IMG/VR virus record: IMGVR_UViG_2531839663_000005
DNA length: 21,916 nucleotides
Strand: one strand, 5' to 3'
Source: a virus
Lineage: Duplodnaviria > Heunggongvirae > Uroviricota > Caudoviricetes
Both the position numbers and the translations under genes were made by a program. The notes below the pieces were generated by a model. It was not told where the DNA came from. It saw only the letters and a program-made list of their open reading frames with translations, and made no database searches. This document shows, in pieces, positions 1 to 9,030 of the stretch (its first letter is position 1; the number at the start of each line of letters is the position of its first letter).

Positions 1-981
1 TCACACCGCCAGCCCACCGCCGAGAGGGTTTAACGTTACTGCGTGTTGCAGGTAATCGGGGGCAAGGTGAGCATAAACCATCGTCTGTTGTATGCTGGCG
101 TGCCCAAGAATTTGCTGTAACGCAATAATGTTTCCCCCGTTCATCATGAACCAGCTTGCGAACGTATGCCGAAGCACATGCGTGGCCTGCCCGCGTGGTA
201 AATCGGGCTTAACCTGTTTGAGCCGTTCGCAGAAGTTTTCATAATCAACTTTGAACAGTGGCCCGGTGTCGCTGGTCTTGATCTCTTTCTCCAGTTCTTC
301 CGATATCGGAACCGTGCGCTTTTTCCCGTTTTTGGTCTTAAGAAACGTCACACGCCCGTGATTTACCTGCTCGCCTCGCAGCGTGCTACCTTCGCCCCAG
401 CGTGCGCCGGTGCTTAGGCATAACAGTGCCACGCGTCGATCGTCGCCGGTCAGAGTGTCCAGCAATCTGCTGATCTCTGATTTGGCGAGATAGGTCATAG
501 CTGGCGGCGCTTCTTTCAGTGGTTCCAGACCCTTGCAGGGGTTTTCCTTTCTGAACTCTTCCAGCTTTATCAACGTGCTGAACATCCCGGACAAACGGTA
601 AATATCCCGGTTGATCGTTGCTGCGCTGATACCGTCTTCCAGCCGTTGGCTTCGGTGCTGTGCAATCATTCGTTTGTTCAGTCGGTTAACGGCTGGATCA
701 CCCAGCGCCCTGATTGTTTTATTCAGGTGCCGCTTTTCAATCTCGCCATTTTCCTGAGTCTGTCCATACAGCAGCCACCAGGTATCTAACAACTCGCTTA
801 AGGTGCGGCGGTCAACGCTCGCGCCCAGCCATTCTTTTTTGTCGGCGTTGGCTAATACATAACGCTCAAAAAGAACTGCCTCTTGTTTCTTCTCAAATCG
901 CCTGCGGATACGTTTTCCGTTACGTCCGCGCGGCCATACGTCCACTTCATATTGACCACCTTCGAGCTTCTTAATCGACAT
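1..981 (-). CDS. int: Tyrosine site-specific integrase, P2-type (complete; stop codon is window bases 1-3)
   Basis: 326-codon minus-strand ORF; ATG at 981 preceded by GGAGGG; C-terminal catalytic region HVLRHTFASWFMMNGGNIIALQQILGHASIQQTMVYAHL (HxxR ... Y) typical of phage integrases; located at the prophage end next to the repressor. Confidence 0.9.
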   Translation of the reverse strand: MSIKKLEGGQYEVDVWPRGRNGKRIRRRFEKKQEAVLFERYVLANADKKEWLGASVDRRTLSELLDTWWLLYGQTQENGEIEKRHLNKTIRALGDPAVNRLNKRMIAQHRSQRLEDGISAATINRDIYRLSGMFSTLIKLEEFRKENPCKGLEPLKEAPPAMTYLAKSEISRLLDTLTGDDRRVALLCLSTGARWGEGSTLRGEQVNHGRVTFLKTKNGKKRTVPISEELEKEIKTSDTGPLFKVDYENFCERLKQVKPDLPRGQATHVLRHTFASWFMMNGGNIIALQQILGHASIQQTMVYAHLAPDYLQHAVTLNPLGGGLAV

Positions 982-1050: not shown

Positions 1051-1371
1051 TTAACCAGTTTGTTTCTCGGAGCGGTCTGATCCAGTTGACTCTGGCCCAA
1101 TGTGTGCGAGGGCCGGTGCGATTTGACCAGCTTGAGGGGCGGTCTTATCTGTCATAAGCCAGAGCGTGTATTTTGCGAAACGTGAATGCTGAGTGATCTT
1201 AAGCAAGATATCGCTACCAATACTCTCCACTCTTCCTGTCTCGTAATACTTCTGCGTGCCAGCAGGTATTCCTGTTAATTCAAAGAATTGCTGCCTTGTT
1301 AACCCCTCCGCATCCCTGATAGCTCTGATTTTTTCACCCACGCCGCTTGACGGGGTAGGGATCTCTACCAT
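1051..1371 (-). CDS. C: P2 C-type immunity repressor (HTH); alternative upstream starts at 1404 (ATG) or 1410 (TTG)
   Basis: HTH-like segment LTRQQFFELTGIPAGTQKYYETGR; C-terminal KYTLWLMTD...GQIAPALAH matches my recollection of P2 C; ATG at 1371 has AAGGAG 6 nt upstream; followed on the same strand by int. Confidence 0.75.
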   Translation of the reverse strand: MVEIPTPSSGVGEKIRAIRDAEGLTRQQFFELTGIPAGTQKYYETGRVESIGSDILLKITQHSRFAKYTLWLMTDKTAPQAGQIAPALAHIGPESTGSDRSEKQTG

Positions 1372-1404
1372 AACATTCTCCTTAAGGGTGGTAATCTCTA
1401 CCAT
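1347..1404 (+). promoter_or_regulatory. Candidate early promoter Pe (TTGACG 1347-1352, TAACAT 1371-1376) with two 19-nt direct repeats (1353-1371 and 1386-1404, core ATCTCTACCAT) as candidate repressor operators
   Basis: Direct repeats 33 bp apart (16/19 identical) seen in sequence. P2-type switches use direct-repeat operators flanking the Pe -10 (established). The assignment here is inference. Confidence 0.35.
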
Positions 1405-1473
1405 GATCAACCGCCAATATAAGCAGTTACAAGCCGAAATAAGCGTCTAGCGCCAACGGGGAGATTAGCACAA

Positions 1474-1758
1474 ATGGTTATGAAACATGAGGGAGAGGAA
1501 GAATCGGGCGGAGCCTTACATATGAGATCCCGCCAGATTAAGGAGAGTCAAAAACGTGGATTTATGCGGGTTATTGCAGAACGTTTGTCACTGGTGTTCC
1601 TTCGAGTTGCTCATCCAGAAATTTGTGTGTCCTCGCTAAGTTCAATGCAAGTGATTGTGTTACCCCTGCTGAAAACTGCAATCGCAGAGGAATATCACCA
1701 GCAGGGTGCGGAAGCACTACATCGAGTTGTAATTCGCCTGTCTTGGCGTCGAATTTAA
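1474..1758 (+). CDS. Hypothetical small ORF (94 aa) in the switch region, sense to the early transcript
   Basis: ATG with GGGAGA about 9 nt upstream; overlaps the antisense ORF 1571-1810; no recognisable family; several rare codons. At most one of the two overlapping ORFs is likely real. Confidence 0.2.
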   Translation: MVMKHEGEEESGGALHMRSRQIKESQKRGFMRVIAERLSLVFLRVAHPEICVSSLSSMQVIVLPLLKTAIAEEYHQQGAEALHRVVIRLSWRRI

Positions 1759-1810
1759 GACCTTTAAGGTCAGTAATCGGTAGAGGAAAAACGCCCTTAA
1801 ATTCGTCCAT
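1571..1810 (-). CDS. Hypothetical small ORF (79 aa) on the repressor strand, upstream of C
   Basis: ATG at 1810 with an A-rich leader and no clear SD; balanced amino-acid composition; no recognisable family. Confidence 0.25.
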   Translation of the reverse strand: MDEFKGVFPLPITDLKGLKFDAKTGELQLDVVLPHPAGDIPLRLQFSAGVTQSLALNLARTHKFLDEQLEGTPVTNVLQ

Positions 1811-1900
1811 TTTTTTGCCCTATTAGTGTGAGAGCTACAAGGGTAACACGCGCCGGGGCGTGAGAAAAAATCCCGGCAACAATCAATTAGAGGTAATTCT

Positions 1901-2182
1901 ATGACAGACAAAGAGTTAGAGGGGTTCATTGAAGTGCGTCACGCTGTTGACGCGGTTCCATACCCAAAATTTGCAGAATTGATCGGTAAGAAGCCCGCCA
2001 CGGTTAAGAGCATGATTGAAGACGGTAAGTTGCCGATCATCCCGTGGAAGAACCCGGAAAGCCTGGGCGCCCGCGCTGAGAACTGGATCTATATTCCTGA
2101 GTTTAACCGCGCAATGCGTGACGCCTACTACAACCGTCCGAGAGAGCAGCGCGACGCCTGGTTGCTGTGGATCGGTCTTTGA
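1901..2182 (+). CDS. cox: Cox-like excision/switch regulator
   Basis: 93 aa; AGAGG 6 nt upstream of ATG; divergent from C; pattern KLPIIPW...RAENWIYIPEFN...YYNRPREQRDAWLLWIGL resembles P2 Cox (from memory). Confidence 0.8.
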   Translation: MTDKELEGFIEVRHAVDAVPYPKFAELIGKKPATVKSMIEDGKLPIIPWKNPESLGARAENWIYIPEFNRAMRDAYYNRPREQRDAWLLWIGL

Positions 2183-2876: not shown

Positions 2877-2892
2877 TCACTTAATTAAGTGA
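2877..2892. promoter_or_regulatory. Perfect 16-bp palindrome TCACTTAATTAAGTGA, candidate operator upstream of the TerB-like gene
   Basis: Seen in sequence; lies in the AT-rich 94-bp gap about 36 nt upstream of the ATG at 2928. Confidence 0.35.
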
Positions 2893-2927
2893 TGGCGCTT
2901 TCACTCATCCTAAAAAGGATAAAGAGC

Positions 2928-3362
2928 ATGTTTAATAAACTGTTTGGAAAAAAAGTAGCAGCGGCAAAAGTTGAACTTAAGAAAGTGGAAAATCGCGATC
3001 TTATGGAAGCTATTGTCGGTGGTTGTCTTTTGGTATCTGCCGCCGATGGCGAGATCGAAAAAGAAGAAACCAGCAAGCTGGATCAGCTTATTCGCTCTAA
3101 CCCGCGCCTTGCGCATTTCGGCAATGAAATCACATCCACCATCAACCGCTATACGGAACAGCTTGAAGCTGGGTTCCGCGTTGGCCGCATGAACATTTTG
3201 CGCGAAATCGACGACATCAAAAACGATCCGAAAGAAGCCGAAGAAGTCTTCGTCAACATGCTGACTATCGCCGAAGCGGACGGCCAGATCGAACCGGAAG
3301 AACAAAAGGTGCTGGAAGAGGTCGGGCGCCGTCTGGGGCTGCGTGTTGAGGATTATCTCTGA
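2928..3362 (+). CDS. TerB-like domain protein (144 aa)
   Basis: Two TerB-like segments (LLVSAADGEIEKEETSKL and LTIAEADGQIEPEEQKVL); ATG at 2928 with AGGA upstream; the ORF-track start at 2889 lacks an SD. Confidence 0.6.
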   Translation: MFNKLFGKKVAAAKVELKKVENRDLMEAIVGGCLLVSAADGEIEKEETSKLDQLIRSNPRLAHFGNEITSTINRYTEQLEAGFRVGRMNILREIDDIKNDPKEAEEVFVNMLTIAEADGQIEPEEQKVLEEVGRRLGLRVEDYL

Positions 3363-3544
3363 TGCTGCGCGTGCTGGATTCACTACGTCCGGCGCTGGCC
3401 CTGCTGTTGGCCTTCATGGTCGTAGCAGTGGATTTCACCAGCTACCTGCTTTCGGTGATTGGCGACGCCTTCTTCGTTGGCGCTCTTCTTCTCCTTGTCT
3501 GGCCTGCCCTCAAGTCAGCTAACCAATCAGCGGATCACCAGTAA
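3362..3544 (+). CDS. Small predicted 2-TM membrane protein (60 aa), translationally coupled to the TerB-like gene
   Basis: Start ATG overlaps the upstream TGA (TGATG); two hydrophobic stretches (ALALLLAFMVVAV and FFVGALLLLVWPAL). Confidence 0.5.
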   Translation: MLRVLDSLRPALALLLAFMVVAVDFTSYLLSVIGDAFFVGALLLLVWPALKSANQSADHQ

Positions 3545-3586
3545 CAGATTGCCGGGGAAACCCGGCAATTTCGGAGGCTTCGAATC

Positions 3587-3799
3587 ATGACTAAACGCGA
3601 TCAATATAACTTCATCCTGCACGTTCTCTTACCTGCTGTTGAGCGTGAAGGGCTGACGATTAAAACCCGCCGCGATGGTGAGTTAACCCTTTCTTCTGAC
3701 GATCCCTCTGTTTCCTGCTTTATCGACGACATGCGCCAGCGCCTTACCACGGCGTTGCAGCGTCCGGCTGTTCCATCTTCCCCTTACGGAGTCCTGTAA
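3587..3799 (+). CDS. Hypothetical early protein (70 aa)
   Basis: ATG with GGAGG upstream; stop 1 nt before the dam start. Confidence 0.5.
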   Translation: MTKRDQYNFILHVLLPAVEREGLTIKTRRDGELTLSSDDPSVSCFIDDMRQRLTTALQRPAVPSSPYGVL

Positions 3800-3800
3800 A

Positions 3801-4772
3801 ATGATCCGCCCGTTCATCAAATGGGCAGGGGGTAAAACCCGTGTCCTTCCTGACCTGCTGCCACACCTTCCTACAGCCGACTGCCTGATCGAACCGTTCG
3901 TAGGCGGCGCGTCGGTATTTCTGGCGACTGAATACCGCCGCTATGTGCTGGCTGATATCAACCCGGATCTTATTAACCTGTATCGGGAAGTCACCCGTTA
4001 CCCGGACTTAGTGATCGATGCGGCCCGCGAACTGTTCAACAGTAAGAACAGCCCGCAGGGATACAACGAAGTCCGCGCCGCGTTCAATAAGCAGGTGGGT
4101 ACGGTAAAAAGCGGTGGGTTGCGTTATGGCGCTGAAATGGCGTGCATTATGCGCGCTGCTCAATTCCTGTATCTGAATCGCCACGGTTATAACGGCTTAT
4201 GCCGATACAGTCGGAAGACCGGCTTTAACGTGCCGTTTGGCAAGTATAAGAGCGTCTACTTTCCAGAAAATGAAATCCGCCTGTTTGCCGAAAAGGCCAA
4301 CGATACAAAGGCAATATTTCTTTGCGCGCCGTTCCAGCGTTCTCTACAGGTCGTCACGGGTGGCGATGTTCTCGTTTACTGCGATCCGCCTTACCTGCCT
4401 GAAAGCAAAACAGCCGATTTTACCCAATACCACACCGAACCATTCACGGAAGACAACCACCGCCAGTTAGTCCAGGCACTGCTGGAAGTTAACCGTAAGC
4501 ATGGCGTGAAGGTCGTCATTTCCAACAGCGACACCGAAGCCACCCGCGCGATTTATCAGCCCTTCAAGATGCACGAAATCAGCGTGCAACGTTCCGTCAG
4601 CACTGACAAAGACAACCGACAGAAGGCCAAAGAAGTGATCGGCGTGCTGCCTGTCTGCGACTGCTGCGGGCGTTACGGCGGCGGTTGCCCTGATTGTGGC
4701 GCCGTGATGGGTGATGCGACTTACAACGCGATGGTTGCGGCGGGCACGTTTGACGATCTGGAGGCTTTTTAA
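3801..4772 (+). CDS. dam: Dam-family N6-adenine DNA methyltransferase with a Cys-rich C-terminal tail
   Basis: N-terminal KWAGGK and EPFVGGASVF (AdoMet-binding) and DPPY catalytic motif; C-terminal CDCCGRYGGGCPDCG cluster not present in host Dam. Confidence 0.85.
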   Translation: MIRPFIKWAGGKTRVLPDLLPHLPTADCLIEPFVGGASVFLATEYRRYVLADINPDLINLYREVTRYPDLVIDAARELFNSKNSPQGYNEVRAAFNKQVGTVKSGGLRYGAEMACIMRAAQFLYLNRHGYNGLCRYSRKTGFNVPFGKYKSVYFPENEIRLFAEKANDTKAIFLCAPFQRSLQVVTGGDVLVYCDPPYLPESKTADFTQYHTEPFTEDNHRQLVQALLEVNRKHGVKVVISNSDTEATRAIYQPFKMHEISVQRSVSTDKDNRQKAKEVIGVLPVCDCCGRYGGGCPDCGAVMGDATYNAMVAAGTFDDLEAF

Positions 4773-5077
4773 TGGCAAAAATCTATATCGCTGGCCCGAT
4801 GAGCGGTTTGCCTGGATTCAATCGGCAGGCATTTAACCGTGCAGCCGGGCACGTAGTGCGACGCGGAAACGTTGCCCTTAATCCGGCGATTTTGCCGGAT
4901 GGATTAGAGCAGGCGGAATACATGGATATTTGCTTCGCCATGTTGCGTTGTGCTGACGAGATCTTCTTGCTGGATGGCTGGCAGCAGTCTGCCGGGGCAA
5001 GAGCAGAATGCGCGTTAGCTCAAAAGCTGGGGTTGAAGATCCAGCACCAGACGATCGATCGGTTCACGGGGGCGTAA
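4772..5077 (+). CDS. DUF4406-like protein (nucleoside 2-deoxyribosyltransferase-like fold), 101 aa
   Basis: N-terminal MAKIYIAGPMSG motif recalled as typical of DUF4406; GGAGG upstream; start overlaps the dam stop (TAATG) and its stop overlaps the A start. Confidence 0.6.
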   Translation: MAKIYIAGPMSGLPGFNRQAFNRAAGHVVRRGNVALNPAILPDGLEQAEYMDICFAMLRCADEIFLLDGWQQSAGARAECALAQKLGLKIQHQTIDRFTGA

Positions 5078-7434
5078 TGACCGCCGTAACCCGTGGCCGT
5101 CGCGCGCCCTCTCCACCTCCACCGTATCCGGGTAACGCTGACAATGCTCTCCCTTACGCTTATGGCGGGAACAAACCATACCAGCCGATTGGCGTTGATG
5201 TAGCGCCGGGGCTGGATGGTTTCGACTATCTCACGCCGGACGGCACGCGTAAGCATATTGCGTTCAGTGAACTGGTAGCGGAAGACGAAAAGCCGGAACG
5301 CAGTAAGCTGCTGCGTCGCCGTCTGGCTTCTCTTCCGCAGTATATCCGCCGTCACTTTGCCGCGAAGCTGGATGCGCTGGACGCGAAAGACCGTAAAGCG
5401 GCAGATCTCTGGCTGGTTAATACCTTTGAGCGCCACGTATTAACGCGTATTGATAGCGTCAACAGTGTTTACCAGCCTGACACTGTGATGCCCGGCATTC
5501 TGCTACCAATCCGCGATCAGCTTTTCCGTATGCTTTGGGCAGGGAAAAAAGAGTTAAAAAGACTGGCTTATACGCTTGCCGATATCTTTACGAGAGAGTT
5601 TATTCGCGAGTCCGATCACCAGTTGGCGCGCACCGGCGATCCTGAGTTCGCGGCGCTTTCTGGCTATGGCCGTATTGCGTCGCTGGCGGTGCATCTGAAA
5701 ACGCCGATCCCAGGTTGGACAGCATATTGCAATGAAGAACTTGAAGCGGAGGACGCGTTACGCGCGGTTCTCCGTCTTGAGTCACCGCAGTGGTGGTTAA
5801 ACCGCCTGCGCCGTATCCATGCCCGGTGGCGTGAGCATTTGATGATCGCAGCGGGATACGTCCAGAAAAAATCTTCCCCATACAGTAGTGCCCCGTGCCT
5901 TACGGAATGGCTGGCCCAGAAAAAGGCTAACCGTGAATACCTCAAGGCTATGGAACTGGAAGACCAGGACACGGGCGAGCGCATTTCACTGATCGATAAA
6001 GTCGCCGGCAGTGTTGCCAATCCGGCCAACCGTCGCCGCGAACTCATGACGAGAATGCGCGGGTTTGAAGATCTGGCGAAGCTGGAAGGGTTGGCCGGTG
6101 ATTTCTACACGCTGACAGCACCTTCCCGTTACCACTCCATGCAGCATAACGGGCGCCGCAATAATAAATACTGTGGCGCGTCGCCGCGCGAGACGCAGCA
6201 ATATCTTTGCAAAGTCTGGGCGAGAACCCGCGCAGCTTGGAAGAGAAAAGGGATCCGCGTCTTTGGTTTCCGCGTGGTCGAACCGCACCACGATGCAACA
6301 CCCCACTGGCATTTACTTCTTTTTATGCGCCCGGAATGCGTCGAGCAGGCGCGCGAAATCTTCCGTAAATATGCCCTGAAAGAAGACGGCAACGAACCGG
6401 GAGCGCAGGAAAACCGCTTTCAGGTTGTGCCGATCGACGATGCCCACGGCAGCGCAACCGGCTACATAGCGAAATACATTTCGAAGAATATCGACGGCTT
6501 CGCGCTGGATGGTGAGAAGGACGACGAAACCGGGGAAGACCTGAAAGAAATGTCACTCCGCGTTAGTGCGTGGGCATCGCGCTGGGCTATTCGCCAGTTT
6601 CAGCAGATCGGCGGTGCGCCGGTCACGGTATATCGGGAACTTCGCCGCCTGGGCGATCGCGAACTGGTGTTACACCCTGAACTGGAAACCGCCCGGCAGG
6701 CCGCTAACGGTGGCGAATGGGATAACTACGTATTAGCCCAGGGTGGCCCGTTGGTTGAGCGCGATAAGCTGCGCATCCGTCTGAACTATGAAACCACTGA
6801 AAACGGCAACGCCTACGGTGATAACGTCCAGCGAATCACTGGTATTTACTGCCCGATTACGGGCAATGACTCTTTGATCTTCACCCGCACCACTCAATAC
6901 AAAATCGTGCCGAAGCGCCAGAGCGCTGACGGTGTGGCCGTTGACGTTGGTTTTTCAGGCGGCAGCGCCGCCCCTCGGAGTTCTGTCAATAACTGTACGC
7001 GGGATCCCGCGACATGTGCAGACGGTCTTGAACATGCCGATCACGAAGTGGGCGAGACGGTTAATTTTGATGCGCTTTCACGGCAGGAAAAGCGAGAACT
7101 GGCGCAGCGGCTTAGTGACGATGTGCGAAGTAAGCGTAAAAAACGGCCATCGGAACGGGAAGAGGGGGCCGGGCTATCCGTGAAAGAGCAGCAGATCAGT
7201 GAACTGCTGGTGCTGCGTGGAATTGATGCCAGTGCCGGAATGGTCAGATCGATGATGGCCGGTGCATCAGTGGCGTGTGGAGATCTTGTTATGACAGTGC
7301 AGGACGGGCGGCTGGTATCGCGCAACCGCGCAGCGTCCGGGCTGGATAAGCTGCCGTCGCAGGTCATGGCAGCGAAGAAAAAGACAAGTGACCTCGTGAA
7401 TAGGATGAAGGCTGCTTTTTCGGGGCGGAAGTAG
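5077..7434 (+). CDS. A: Rolling-circle replication initiation endonuclease (P2 gpA-like)
   Basis: 785 aa from ATG 5077 (overlapping upstream TAA; ORF-track start 5008 rejected); HUH-type motif EPHHDATPHWHLLLF and active-site Tyr region GYIAKYISKN. Confidence 0.9.
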   Translation: MTAVTRGRRAPSPPPPYPGNADNALPYAYGGNKPYQPIGVDVAPGLDGFDYLTPDGTRKHIAFSELVAEDEKPERSKLLRRRLASLPQYIRRHFAAKLDALDAKDRKAADLWLVNTFERHVLTRIDSVNSVYQPDTVMPGILLPIRDQLFRMLWAGKKELKRLAYTLADIFTREFIRESDHQLARTGDPEFAALSGYGRIASLAVHLKTPIPGWTAYCNEELEAEDALRAVLRLESPQWWLNRLRRIHARWREHLMIAAGYVQKKSSPYSSAPCLTEWLAQKKANREYLKAMELEDQDTGERISLIDKVAGSVANPANRRRELMTRMRGFEDLAKLEGLAGDFYTLTAPSRYHSMQHNGRRNNKYCGASPRETQQYLCKVWARTRAAWKRKGIRVFGFRVVEPHHDATPHWHLLLFMRPECVEQAREIFRKYALKEDGNEPGAQENRFQVVPIDDAHGSATGYIAKYISKNIDGFALDGEKDDETGEDLKEMSLRVSAWASRWAIRQFQQIGGAPVTVYRELRRLGDRELVLHPELETARQAANGGEWDNYVLAQGGPLVERDKLRIRLNYETTENGNAYGDNVQRITGIYCPITGNDSLIFTRTTQYKIVPKRQSADGVAVDVGFSGGSAAPRSSVNNCTRDPATCADGLEHADHEVGETVNFDALSRQEKRELAQRLSDDVRSKRKKRPSEREEGAGLSVKEQQISELLVLRGIDASAGMVRSMMAGASVACGDLVMTVQDGRLVSRNRAASGLDKLPSQVMAAKKKTSDLVNRMKAAFSGRK
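6973..6995 (+). other. Candidate replication origin / gpA nick site inside gene A
   Basis: CCTCGGAGTTCTGTCAATAACTG resembles my recollection of the P2 ori (inside gene A, about 1.9 kb from its start); memory-based, not verified. Confidence 0.3.
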
Positions 7435-7502
7435 GGCGCCGATAGGCATGGCAGGTTTTGACAATGTGAAACCGAATTTCTTCAAATCGCGAGCAGATAG
7501 CA

Positions 7503-7521
7503 GGCGGTAAAGCTTACCGCC
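7503..7521. terminator. Hairpin GGCGGTAA-agc-TTACCGCC between convergent gene A and the Doc-like gene (weak candidate bidirectional terminator)
   Basis: 8-bp perfect stem with 3-nt loop seen in sequence; no adjacent U-run on either strand, so weak. Confidence 0.3.
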
Positions 7522-7536
7522 GCAGCGCAAAATATC

Positions 7537-8004
7537 TTAATCGCCTTCATGAATGTTATTTTGATGATCCATTATCGCCATTGCCAGTTCCAGCTTAGTG
7601 CTTTCTAATAATTCCTCACATAGAACCAAATCATGAATAATCTGTTGTAGTAAATCCTTGCTGACAGCGCTATCCGCAACCCAAACAGCAATGTTCTCCA
7701 TTTCTTGGACAAAGAGCTTTACACAATGCTCAAACCCATTGATTTCAAGGAAGAATGCGGAGAGAAATATTCCGGATCTTTTATTGCCATCAGTAAAAGC
7801 GTGAAGTTTGTTCACTGAAAAAAACAAATGTGTGAGCTTTGACTCAAAGCTTGGGTAGTACCAATCATTTTGGATATGATCGAGGACACTCTCCAGTACT
7901 CCTCGATCGCGAATGCCTTGTAAACCGCCAGAGCGTTCAATGATGTGATCATGTACTGCTATGGCGTGCTCAATATCAAAGTAATTAAACTGAATCTCAT
8001 CCAT
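7537..8004 (-). CDS. Doc/Fic-family protein (death-on-curing-like toxin), 155 aa
   Basis: Fic/Doc active-site motif HAFTDGNKR (encoded at 7777-7803); GAGGG SD 7 nt upstream; 12 nt downstream of the partner gene stop; AT-rich compared with flanking phage genes. Confidence 0.8.
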   Translation of the reverse strand: MDEIQFNYFDIEHAIAVHDHIIERSGGLQGIRDRGVLESVLDHIQNDWYYPSFESKLTHLFFSVNKLHAFTDGNKRSGIFLSAFFLEINGFEHCVKLFVQEMENIAVWVADSAVSKDLLQQIIHDLVLCEELLESTKLELAMAIMDHQNNIHEGD

Positions 8005-8016
8005 GGCAGCACCCTC

Positions 8017-9030
8017 TTAGCGATCTTTTAAGCGTTTAAACACTTCAAGAGTTTCAGGGTCATTGAGTCTCTCTTCGAGTGACTTGCTTTTCTCGCCTAA
8101 GAATCTCTCAAAGTCGCTTTCTGGTACCGATCGGACATAAGCCTCAAGTTTTTCATGCAAGGCATCACGGAAGCATAGATCCCTGCTCGCCATTTTGGTG
8201 CGAACATCAACCAGCATTGGCTCGTATAAGGGATGCTTTTCCATTGTTGATAAGATGGATTCTGCTTCTTTATATGTGAGTTTTCTGCCCAGGTGGGTGG
8301 CTTTTTGTTTTATCTCGTGAGCGAGGCCAGCTTCGAAACTAGCAATTAAGGTGAGAACCTCAGAATACATCGTGTCACGAATTTTATCGTTTTGATGTAG
8401 TTTCAGCACCTTGCGGTACTCATTTGCATTCTCATGGAAAATGCTCTGATAAATCGCATTGGTGAGTTTTCCAAACTTCCAACCATTGGCATCTACATAA
8501 TCATTAAGAGCATCGGTGAACTGTTTCCGATAGCTTTCTTCCTTGAATGCTGCAACAAGATAATCTTCATCTCTTTGGTTGATAAATTTTGTATGTCCGC
8601 CAGCGCGTTCTGCCAGTGTGTCGATAACGATATCAAGTAAACGTGTTCGAATGATCCTCGCTTGCTCACTTTCAACAAGCAACATGGCAAGGTTTAATAC
8701 GGCTCGAAATTTAAACACTCCAAGAACAGACGTTTTGGTACCCTCATTCATGAGGGTACCATCTGCCACCTCTTTGAATTCCTTTAAAATTTTCCCTTTT
8801 AGAATGATGTATCCGTTGTTCTTTAATTCATCAATGTTGCTGGTTAGGTACCTTTCTATCGTTGCGTCGCTAACATCAAAAATCTCAACCAATTGATTTT
8901 TGGTAAACACTATCTCGCCATCAAATTCGATCCCGCCCAAAGCAAGATGCTTTTCGGCGTGCTTGAGTGCATACGAATTATTGAGAATGTTTTGTCTGTC
9001 GTGAGCGGAGGTTGTCAGATCCTTAGCCAT
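8017..9030 (-). CDS. RhuM-family-like protein (tentative), 337 aa; first gene of the cargo operon
   Basis: Strong ORF with AGGAAAAGG SD; N-terminal winged-helix-like segment and central NLAMLLVESEQARIIRTRLL / EYRKVL segments resemble my recollection of RhuM-family proteins. The family call is not verified. Confidence 0.7.
   Translation of the reverse strand: MAKDLTTSAHDRQNILNNSYALKHAEKHLALGGIEFDGEIVFTKNQLVEIFDVSDATIERYLTSNIDELKNNGYIILKGKILKEFKEVADGTLMNEGTKTSVLGVFKFRAVLNLAMLLVESEQARIIRTRLLDIVIDTLAERAGGHTKFINQRDEDYLVAAFKEESYRKQFTDALNDYVDANGWKFGKLTNAIYQSIFHENANEYRKVLKLHQNDKIRDTMYSEVLTLIASFEAGLAHEIKQKATHLGRKLTYKEAESILSTMEKHPLYEPMLVDVRTKMASRDLCFRDALHEKLEAYVRSVPESDFERFLGEKSKSLEERLNDPETLEVFKRLKDR

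Follow-up and report, generated by a model that had tools for sequence, protein, structure and literature searches.

The C repressors of phages P2 and WPhi bind two direct half-sites that flank the -10 hexamer of the early promoter Pe; those of WPhi are 10 bp long and lie 34 bp apart (PMC1904268). The described hotspots of P2 lie at gpA-gpQ, among the tail genes G-FI and at int-att (PMC9122126, PMC13586616, PMC3573123); 8% of P2 systems fall in a broad 'integrase to primase' region (PMC13586616). Genes antisense to lytic operons with a promoter of their own have been described as a signature of accessory loci (PMC7067206). In this study we analyzed the interval between the immunity repressor gene C and cox, the first conserved early gene, in IMG/VR virus record IMGVR_UViG_2531839663_000005. 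The whole stretch of 21,916 nucleotides is hereafter called the window, and from its gene content its left end reads as a P2-like prophage arm. A preliminary description of the window had proposed an enlarged lysis-lysogeny switch between the two genes. We found the switch intact and compact (1347-1464), with the extra DNA just downstream of it. Taking both parts of the explanation together, we regard it as probable that this DNA is an inserted, exchangeable cargo ('moron') cassette and that it carries one real small gene, orf79.

The C-cox interval as a variable slot

The start codons of C and cox are 529 bp apart in the window when C is read from ATG-1371 and 496 bp apart from ATG-1404, in agreement with the approximately 490 bp reported previously; the shorter interval that had been given for P2 was also correct. 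The annotated P2 and WPhi records have C-cox intervals of 114 and 152 bp, respectively. Enterobacter phage phiT5282H, which encodes the same C protein as the window (100% identity), has an interval of 100 bp. The alignment of phiT5282H with positions 1000-2250 (97.5% DNA identity over the aligned part) was near-identical up to 1464, broke, and picked up again inside cox. The inserted cassette of about 430 bp (1465-1900, no strand assigned) is absent from phiT5282H. Its left end (1474-1503, plus strand) keeps a degraded, cox-type translation start, GGAGATTAGCACAAATGG...ATGAGGGAGAGGAAG, which by our own count matches the phiT5282H cox start TTATGACACATGACAGAGAAAGAG at ~19 of 24 positions, and beyond the insert, at 1889-1915, come a new Shine-Dalgarno (SD) sequence and the opening codons of cox. 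The cox gene itself (1889-2182, plus strand; coding sequence 1901-2182) has its own SD, AGAGG at 1889-1893, ahead of ATG 1901, and its product matched the Pfam family Phage_Cox (PF10743) with an E value of 2.1e-23, exceeding the curated cut-off. A different insert, 0.9 kb in length, occupies the same site in Salmonella phage SEN5 with the same left and right ends.

We measured the C-to-cox gap in a survey of 84 related loci. The gap was 95-112 bp in 51 loci, ~170 bp in two and 528-1514 bp in 31, the last group holding inserts of ~0.4-1.4 kb at the C-cox slot. These inserts comprise at least seven unrelated cargo sets, some with a single minus-strand small gene and some with a plus-strand gene of 151-159 aa together with a minus-strand gene; some sets encode proteins of ~155 aa with hydrophobic segments, which from their sequences gave the impression of putative membrane proteins. 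A moron is recognized by its presence or absence at one site in near-identical phages together with varied content, which is what phiT5282H, lacking the insert, and the 31 occupied loci display. The cargo of the window (cargo A, with orf79) was found with three C types, of 100%, 64% and 51% identity, which means that the cassette and the immunity module move separately. Where cox is 96-100% identical, the left end is common to most cargo types; loci whose cox is ~70% identical have another left end. The right-end 'head' is conserved in every cargo type at the slot. The cassette lies between C and cox, outside the gpA-gpQ, tail G-FI and int-att hotspots, and the C-cox interval is not named as a slot in the literature on P2 hotspots that we searched. 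That a third of the sampled relatives (31/84) hold cargo in the leader of the early operon was the less expected finding of this work. This cox type was present in 39 of 5426 complete E. coli genomes, with cassette A in 6 and the two head variants in 16 and 23, and the collection of deposited phages gave no DNA match to the cassette.

The plus-strand cargo genes of 151-159 aa (1977-2453 in locus L002, with equivalents in L023, L025 and L027) open with a cox-like start. The first ~14 residues of the SEN5 plus-strand cargo product (MVMKHEGRAFIEV) resemble the N-terminus of Cox (MTDKELEGFIEV). These cox-like starts suggest an origin of the cassette in an insertion that entered the 5' end of cox and duplicated it. 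Further downstream in the window, a TerB-family gene (157 aa) and a DUF3927 gene (60 aa) at 2889-3544, between a fil-like gene and the reading frame preceding dam, form a second small cargo insertion within the early operon; the pair is present in E. coli AR_0128 and absent from phiT5282H and SEN5.

Reading frames and conserved DNA of the cassette

The preliminary description had listed two mutually antisense open reading frames (ORFs) without recognizable families in the interval. Both exist, at 1474-1758 on the plus strand (94 aa) and at 1571-1810 on the minus strand (79 aa; orf79), and neither has a match in Pfam, PHROGs, NCBIfam or PADLOC; the direct repeats and the TAATAG hexamer that had been listed with them are likewise where they had been placed. 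The suggested check of codon-type against structure-type conservation separated the two frames: the minus-strand ORF showed the codon type, the plus-strand ORF did not, and RNA folding gave no signal. Among five close variants, the variable sites of orf79 numbered 10 synonymous to 4 non-synonymous over the whole ORF and 6 to 2 in the overlap (1574-1755), and those of the plus-strand ORF 1 to 16 and 0 to 8, respectively. Full-length homologues of orf79 have 80 aa and 52-67% identity, and distant ones near 30% keep the residue pattern and not the DNA. An AlphaFold2 (AF2) model with a predicted local distance difference test score (pLDDT) of 78.5 has a beta-beta-beta-alpha fold. On the evidence of the homologues, the 10:4 counts and this confident fold model, orf79 is a genuine protein-coding gene, and the proposal of an extra small gene in the interval was right for the minus strand. 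The Prokaryotic Genome Annotation Pipeline (PGAP) annotated only this ORF in E. coli. The plus-strand ORF, judged by its counts, is not under coding constraint; with no family match and no PGAP annotation, it does not hold as a candidate small gene.

The product of orf79 is soluble and belongs to a rare, uncharacterized family; it has no DNA-binding family signature, toxin family match or membrane segment, and it may possibly form a dimer. A profile search of PDB sequences with orf79 gave nothing below an E value of 0.1, and the Foldseek viral library returned only uncharacterized proteins at 0.0096 or worse. PADLOC gave no match for orf79 or seven other cargo proteins, and an eighth reached a non-significant E value of 0.036. 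An hhalign comparison of the type A (orf79) with the type B (78 aa) cargo revealed no homology (probability 0.1).

The 3' third of orf79 (codons 52-77) coincides with an 80-nt island conserved at the DNA level (1577-1656, no strand assigned). Mean pairwise identity was 0.82-0.94 in the island compared to 0.48-0.6 over most of the upstream ORF and <0.45 past the stop codon. The synonymous sites of the island are largely frozen across P2-like and lambdoid prophages, the flank past the stop codon is unrelated, and the island is absent from the distant family member of a 186-like prophage. Dual coding was rejected as the cause: the antisense frame is open in all loci, but its changes in the overlap are all non-synonymous (0:8). 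A search of both strands of 1300-2000 with the covariance models of Rfam 15 recovered nothing at E values up to 10, and folding of the island, the head and the 3' flank (both strands) yielded z-scores of -0.16 to -1.08 against shuffled sequences, none significant. Our best guess is that the island would be a tract of gene conversion, or an anchor at which recombination exchanges the variable N-terminal part; it is possible that it could be a nucleic-acid element.

The head contains two overlapping palindromes (1847-1877, no strand assigned), in which H1 pairs 1852-1857 with 1872-1877 and H2 pairs 1847-1851 with 1858-1862. Ahead of every minus-strand cargo gene, the order is the H1/H2 palindromes, TGnTA[CT]CCT, a short CTCWCACAC leader and an SD of the AAGGA type. 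The palindromes follow the patterns GCCGGG-N14-CCCGGC (H1) and CCAYGC-N5-GCRTGG (H2) and lie upstream of every cargo type. Paired changes convert CCACGC/GCGTGG of H2 to CCATGC/GCATGG (C.G to T.A), and H1 reads GCCGGA/TCCGGC in L094 and GCCTG/CAGGC in the lambdoid loci. Symmetry of this kind would be compatible with a hairpin as well as with a palindrome bound by a protein, for example a dimeric regulator. We also observed the H1/H2 palindromes at the same position in L002, L020-L098, L004, L008, L010 and L015.

The TGnTA[CT]CCT element of the window, TGTTACCCT (1840-1848, minus strand), is the extended -10 of a candidate cargo promoter with a predicted start near 1833. This element is conserved in homologous lambdoid loci, and locus L011, which has no palindromes, keeps TGCACA-17-TATCCT; the retention of TATCCT with its TGCACA -35 in a palindrome-less locus supports the -10 assignment. 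The TAATAG hexamer that had been noted just upstream of the minus-strand ORF is present (1826-1821, minus strand), but its proposed function as the -10 of a leaderless mRNA is unlikely: it aligns with the ribosome-binding region (AAGGA) of homologous cassettes, and the conserved extended -10 lies further upstream. We therefore rejected the leaderless/TAATAG promoter. Terminator-like sites were found on neither strand between 1404 and 1900; the lambdoid orf79 homologues, unlike orf79 of the window, have clean terminators past the stop codon. The head (1831-1872) has inverted similarity to the antisense of C codons 9-19 (1314-1345), with 79% complementarity over 19 nt and 85% over 13 nt; the similarity is permuted in order and is probably chance. 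A 12-nt complementarity between 1657-1668 and 1838-1849 was also set aside, since it is not conserved in the lambdoid loci.

The switch at 1347-1464

The switch itself is not enlarged; it is a complete, compact, WPhi-like switch of the P2 type. A promoter scan returned the candidate early promoter Pe (1347-1376, plus strand) as the only sigma-70-like match in 1250-2000, with a -35 of TTGACG (1347-1352), an 18-nt spacer and a -10 of TAACAT (1371-1376). Relative to the C start, it is positioned as in the P2 and WPhi annotations. The two 19-nt direct repeats of the preliminary description are present here as half-sites O1 (1353-1371; GGGTAGGGATCTCTACCAT, with the core ATCTCTACCAT at 1361-1371) and O2 (1386-1404; GGGTGGTAATCTCTACCAT, with its core at 1394-1404), neither with an assigned strand. 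O1 sits between the -35 and -10 of Pe and overlaps the C start codon; O2 lies just downstream of the -10, in the leader of the C mRNA, and includes the non-conserved ATG-1404. The half-sites match at 16 of 19 positions, have an exact 11-mer in common and are spaced 33 bp apart. Among 2000 dinucleotide shuffles of 1300-1500, an exact 11-nt repeat at a spacing of 15-45 arose in three and a 16/19 match in none; the similarity of the repeats exceeds chance.

We aligned the switches of 83 related loci with that of the window and obtained 57 distinct sequences. The TTGAC of the Pe -35 was invariant among them, and both half-sites varied in concert with the C type at a spacing that was always 32-34 bp; the co-varying pairs of relatives have TTGATACCAT twice, TAGTAACCATAA twice, GGTTCCTTAT twice or GTTGGTCATATCTG twice. 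Because both copies change with the C type, we read the repeats as C operators, an assignment that this concerted change supports well. Switches of the P2 type have two direct half-sites flanking the Pe -10 or -35 at a distance of 22-34 bp, and those of the window flank TAACAT within this range. The earlier suggestion of repressor operators on both sides of the Pe -10 is thus supported by the scan, which places the -10 between the repeats, by the WPhi layout and by the co-variation. The switch is textbook P2/WPhi biology, to which the co-varying half-sites add many candidate immunity classes.

A candidate Pc -10, TATATT (reverse complement of 1416-1421; 1421-1416 on the minus strand), was picked by hand and has a poor -35; Pc of P2 likewise combines a good -10 with a poor -35. 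This weak candidate would face Pe, with ~45 bp between the two -10 hexamers. Over it lie three A[TC]AAGC repeats with a 10-bp period (1419-1424, 1429-1434 and 1439-1444), which are candidate Cox boxes. In the switch alignment the right half of the switch (1405-1464) was conserved with the cox type and not with the C type, and the A[TC]AAGC repeats probably bind Cox.

The C gene (1051-1371, minus strand) encodes a repressor of 106 aa with matches to the helix-turn-helix (HTH) families HTH_31 and HTH_3 and to PHROG 147 (3e-37), and has ~48% identity to C of P2 and ~60% to C of WPhi (tblastn). Members of this family are small (~100 aa) HTH repressors encoded divergently from cox and upstream of int, an arrangement that is present in the window, where the integrase gene (1-981, minus strand) lies downstream of C. 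The preliminary description had read the repeats as a duplicated 5' end of C with alternative starts at 1371 and 1404. Both ATGs are indeed in frame, and ATG-1371 is preceded by a strong SD, AAGGAG at 1383-1378. This ATG/SD pair is kept in the heteroimmune relatives that we inspected by eye, and the ATG in the second repeat is lost in several; on this comparison, C translation is assigned to ATG-1371, inside O1, and the second 'ATGGTAGAGAT' represents O2, a half-site within the leader of C, and thus an operator repeat and no duplicated coding end.

Relatives of orf79, possible roles and known systems

Salmonella and Lelliottia prophages of the lambdoid type, together with other lambdoid-type contigs taken from sequencing runs, contain the closer homologues of orf79, which have the leftward early genes (gam, kilR) on one side and the repressor gene cI on the other and lie on the opposite strand. 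The Salmonella prophage L004 has a second copy of its OR operators, an OL-like site at 3406-3463, that separates the homologue from the 3' end of cI; the homologue is therefore directly downstream of, and antisense to, the leftward early promoter. A distant member (P0009) is cargo between the repressor gene and int of the 186-like prophage L016. The family lies on the lysogenic side in every phage context, facing the early lytic promoter, which agrees with the signature described for accessory loci (PMC7067206). In the Salmonella lambdoid prophages L004-L007, a variable stretch (~3240-4700) separates the orf79 homologue from the repressor gene; it holds two extra small genes in L005 and encodes a 384-aa protein with an HSDR_N domain in L006. 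The 2980-8180 region of L016 has Ogr/Delta, CP76 and Int genes, and P0009 is accompanied there by four other cargo genes, one of them DUF4325.

In the lysogen, C would shut off Pe and leave the cargo promoter unopposed, so that orf79 would be made, and with no canonical terminator between orf79 and C, cargo transcription may continue into C and int. With the cassette inserted at the 5' end of cox, Pe transcripts would have to cross it before reaching cox; upon infection or induction, strong Pe transcription would run antisense through orf79 and should silence it by transcriptional interference. We infer that the lysogen is the most likely beneficiary of orf79, which may for example exclude or defend against other phages or fine-tune immunity. 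A broader proposal, which we offer tentatively and with some doubt, is that the slot is a standardized site for exchangeable cassettes, with the same promoter and palindromes in the head next to lambdoid cI, whose cargo, the orf79 family among it, would be unrecognized effectors expressed in the lysogen that exclude phages or bias the switch. The orf79 family combines a variable N-terminal sheet with a constant C-terminal helix and tail, the frozen DNA of the constant part perhaps acting as a recombination anchor. Cargo expression would be gated purely by convergent transcription from Pe or PL, being on under repression of these promoters and off once they fire.

Several results weigh against the cassette model and the roles proposed from it. 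The promoter scan called no minus-strand promoter in 1250-2000, and the cargo promoter and Pc are consensus-level guesses. A sigma-70-like site of the lambdoid locus L004 lies upstream of the palindromes, which could therefore be RNA of a 5' untranslated region rather than promoter DNA. The frozen synonymous sites at 1577-1656 are unaccounted for by the model. Of the cargo proteins from the slot, orf79 and ten others gave no significant Pfam, PHROG functional, NCBIfam or PADLOC match, and a defence role would be without direct support from these comparisons. The orf79 family is also very rare, with ~13 clusters in 5.8 billion proteins and no relative in 185,579 species-representative genomes.

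Among the alternatives, it is rather unlikely that orf79 modulates the lysis-lysogeny decision, acting through C, Cox, an antirepressor such as P4 epsilon or a promoter that feeds Cox-insensitive transcription into C-int. The family always adjoins the immunity repressor, in three phage architectures, no terminator separates orf79 from C, and the fold weakly resembles the dimerizing or nucleic-acid-binding COMM and PUR-alpha folds. However, orf79 is missing from phages whose C and switch are identical and has no DNA-binding family signature, and the presence of unrelated cargo in the same slot, including putative membrane proteins, is a better fit to a generic accessory slot. The antisense variant of the model of the preliminary description, here taken as an expanded regulatory region whose chief product would be an RNA pair from face-to-face promoters and whose ORFs would be incidental, seems improbable to us. 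A minus-strand promoter ~450 bp downstream of Pe would yield long overlapping transcripts, and the 80-nt frozen synonymous stretch and the paired changes of the head palindromes could point to RNA; yet the minus-strand ORF is under protein-level constraint, its distant homologues retain residues and not DNA, the Rfam and folding results were negative, and the other cassettes at the slot hold quite different genes.

Two further alternatives concern the small ORFs. That the early operon begins with the plus-strand ORF as a genuine gene, dual coding antisense to orf79, is very improbable. It has a cox-like ribosome-binding site and starts with MVMKHEG, as do the real 151-159-aa early genes of other cassettes, and the five divergent homologous loci all keep this frame open. 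These first 7 residues are all that it shares with such genes, the rest being the antisense of orf79; in addition, its 1:16 counts include a change inside the conserved island, and neither the family searches nor PGAP recovered it. Least credible of all is a toxin-antitoxin-like pair of orf79 and C, in the manner of higBA, where a small gene lies upstream of an XRE-family regulator. As in such a pair, the window has a small ORF ahead of an HTH gene, both on one strand and with no intervening terminator, but C is a genuine repressor of the P2 type, at least 51 loci have it without orf79, and orf79 has no toxin family match and is found with three C types and beside a convergent lambdoid cI. We rejected this explanation on the co-occurrence of C and orf79.

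If the exchangeable cassette is the correct explanation, Cox, an excisionase and anti-repressor, is transcribed through 0.4-1.4 kb of foreign DNA, partly against an opposing promoter, which could shift the lysis-lysogeny balance. The slot would then be a compact source of small uncharacterized lysogen-side proteins for phage exclusion or switch control, and the head and the frozen 80-nt island, present in P2-like and lambdoid phages, point to a common mechanism that moves or regulates cassettes. The direct reach is modest, the clade being uncommon in E. coli and the orf79 family very rare.

In lambdoid phages, sieB and rex lie in the immunity-region neighbourhood beside cI. The orf79 homologues resemble rexAB and sieB in their place beside cI, by OL-like operators and opposite the leftward early genes. 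Unlike Rex and SieB, orf79 is a soluble protein of 79 aa with no membrane segment and has no sequence or fold relationship to them. The COMM-domain and PUR-alpha folds matched the orf79 model with low scores for a small fold and 5-16% sequence identity, and may serve as a lead only. The repressor-integrase cargo of L016 resembles the cI-int hotspot reported for Vibrio K139-like phages. The moron hotspots of P2-like phages (gpA-gpQ with old/tin, the tail slot with Z/fun, and int-att; Rousset et al. 2022; PMC13586616; PMC3573123) are similar to the C-cox slot in having variable content at a fixed position, where unrelated sets are exchanged, and cargo oriented against the flanking lytic genes with a putative promoter of its own. 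Unlike them, the C-cox slot lies in the leader of the early operon, and its cassettes are 0.4-1.4 kb long, with a standard head and no known defence family match. With the WPhi and P2 switches, the window shares the order int, C, switch, cox, a Cox of PF10743 and a Pe -35 that abuts or overlaps the C start. The WPhi layout of TTGACA, TATTGGTGAC, TATATT, TATTGGTGAC, with half-sites 34 bp apart, corresponds to the 33-bp arrangement described here. The half-site sequence of the window differs, and it probably represents a different immunity class; its C has ~10 extra N-terminal residues, so that the C coding sequence takes in O1 and the Pe -35. What chiefly sets the window apart from WPhi and P2 is the 430-bp cargo cassette that separates its switch from cox.

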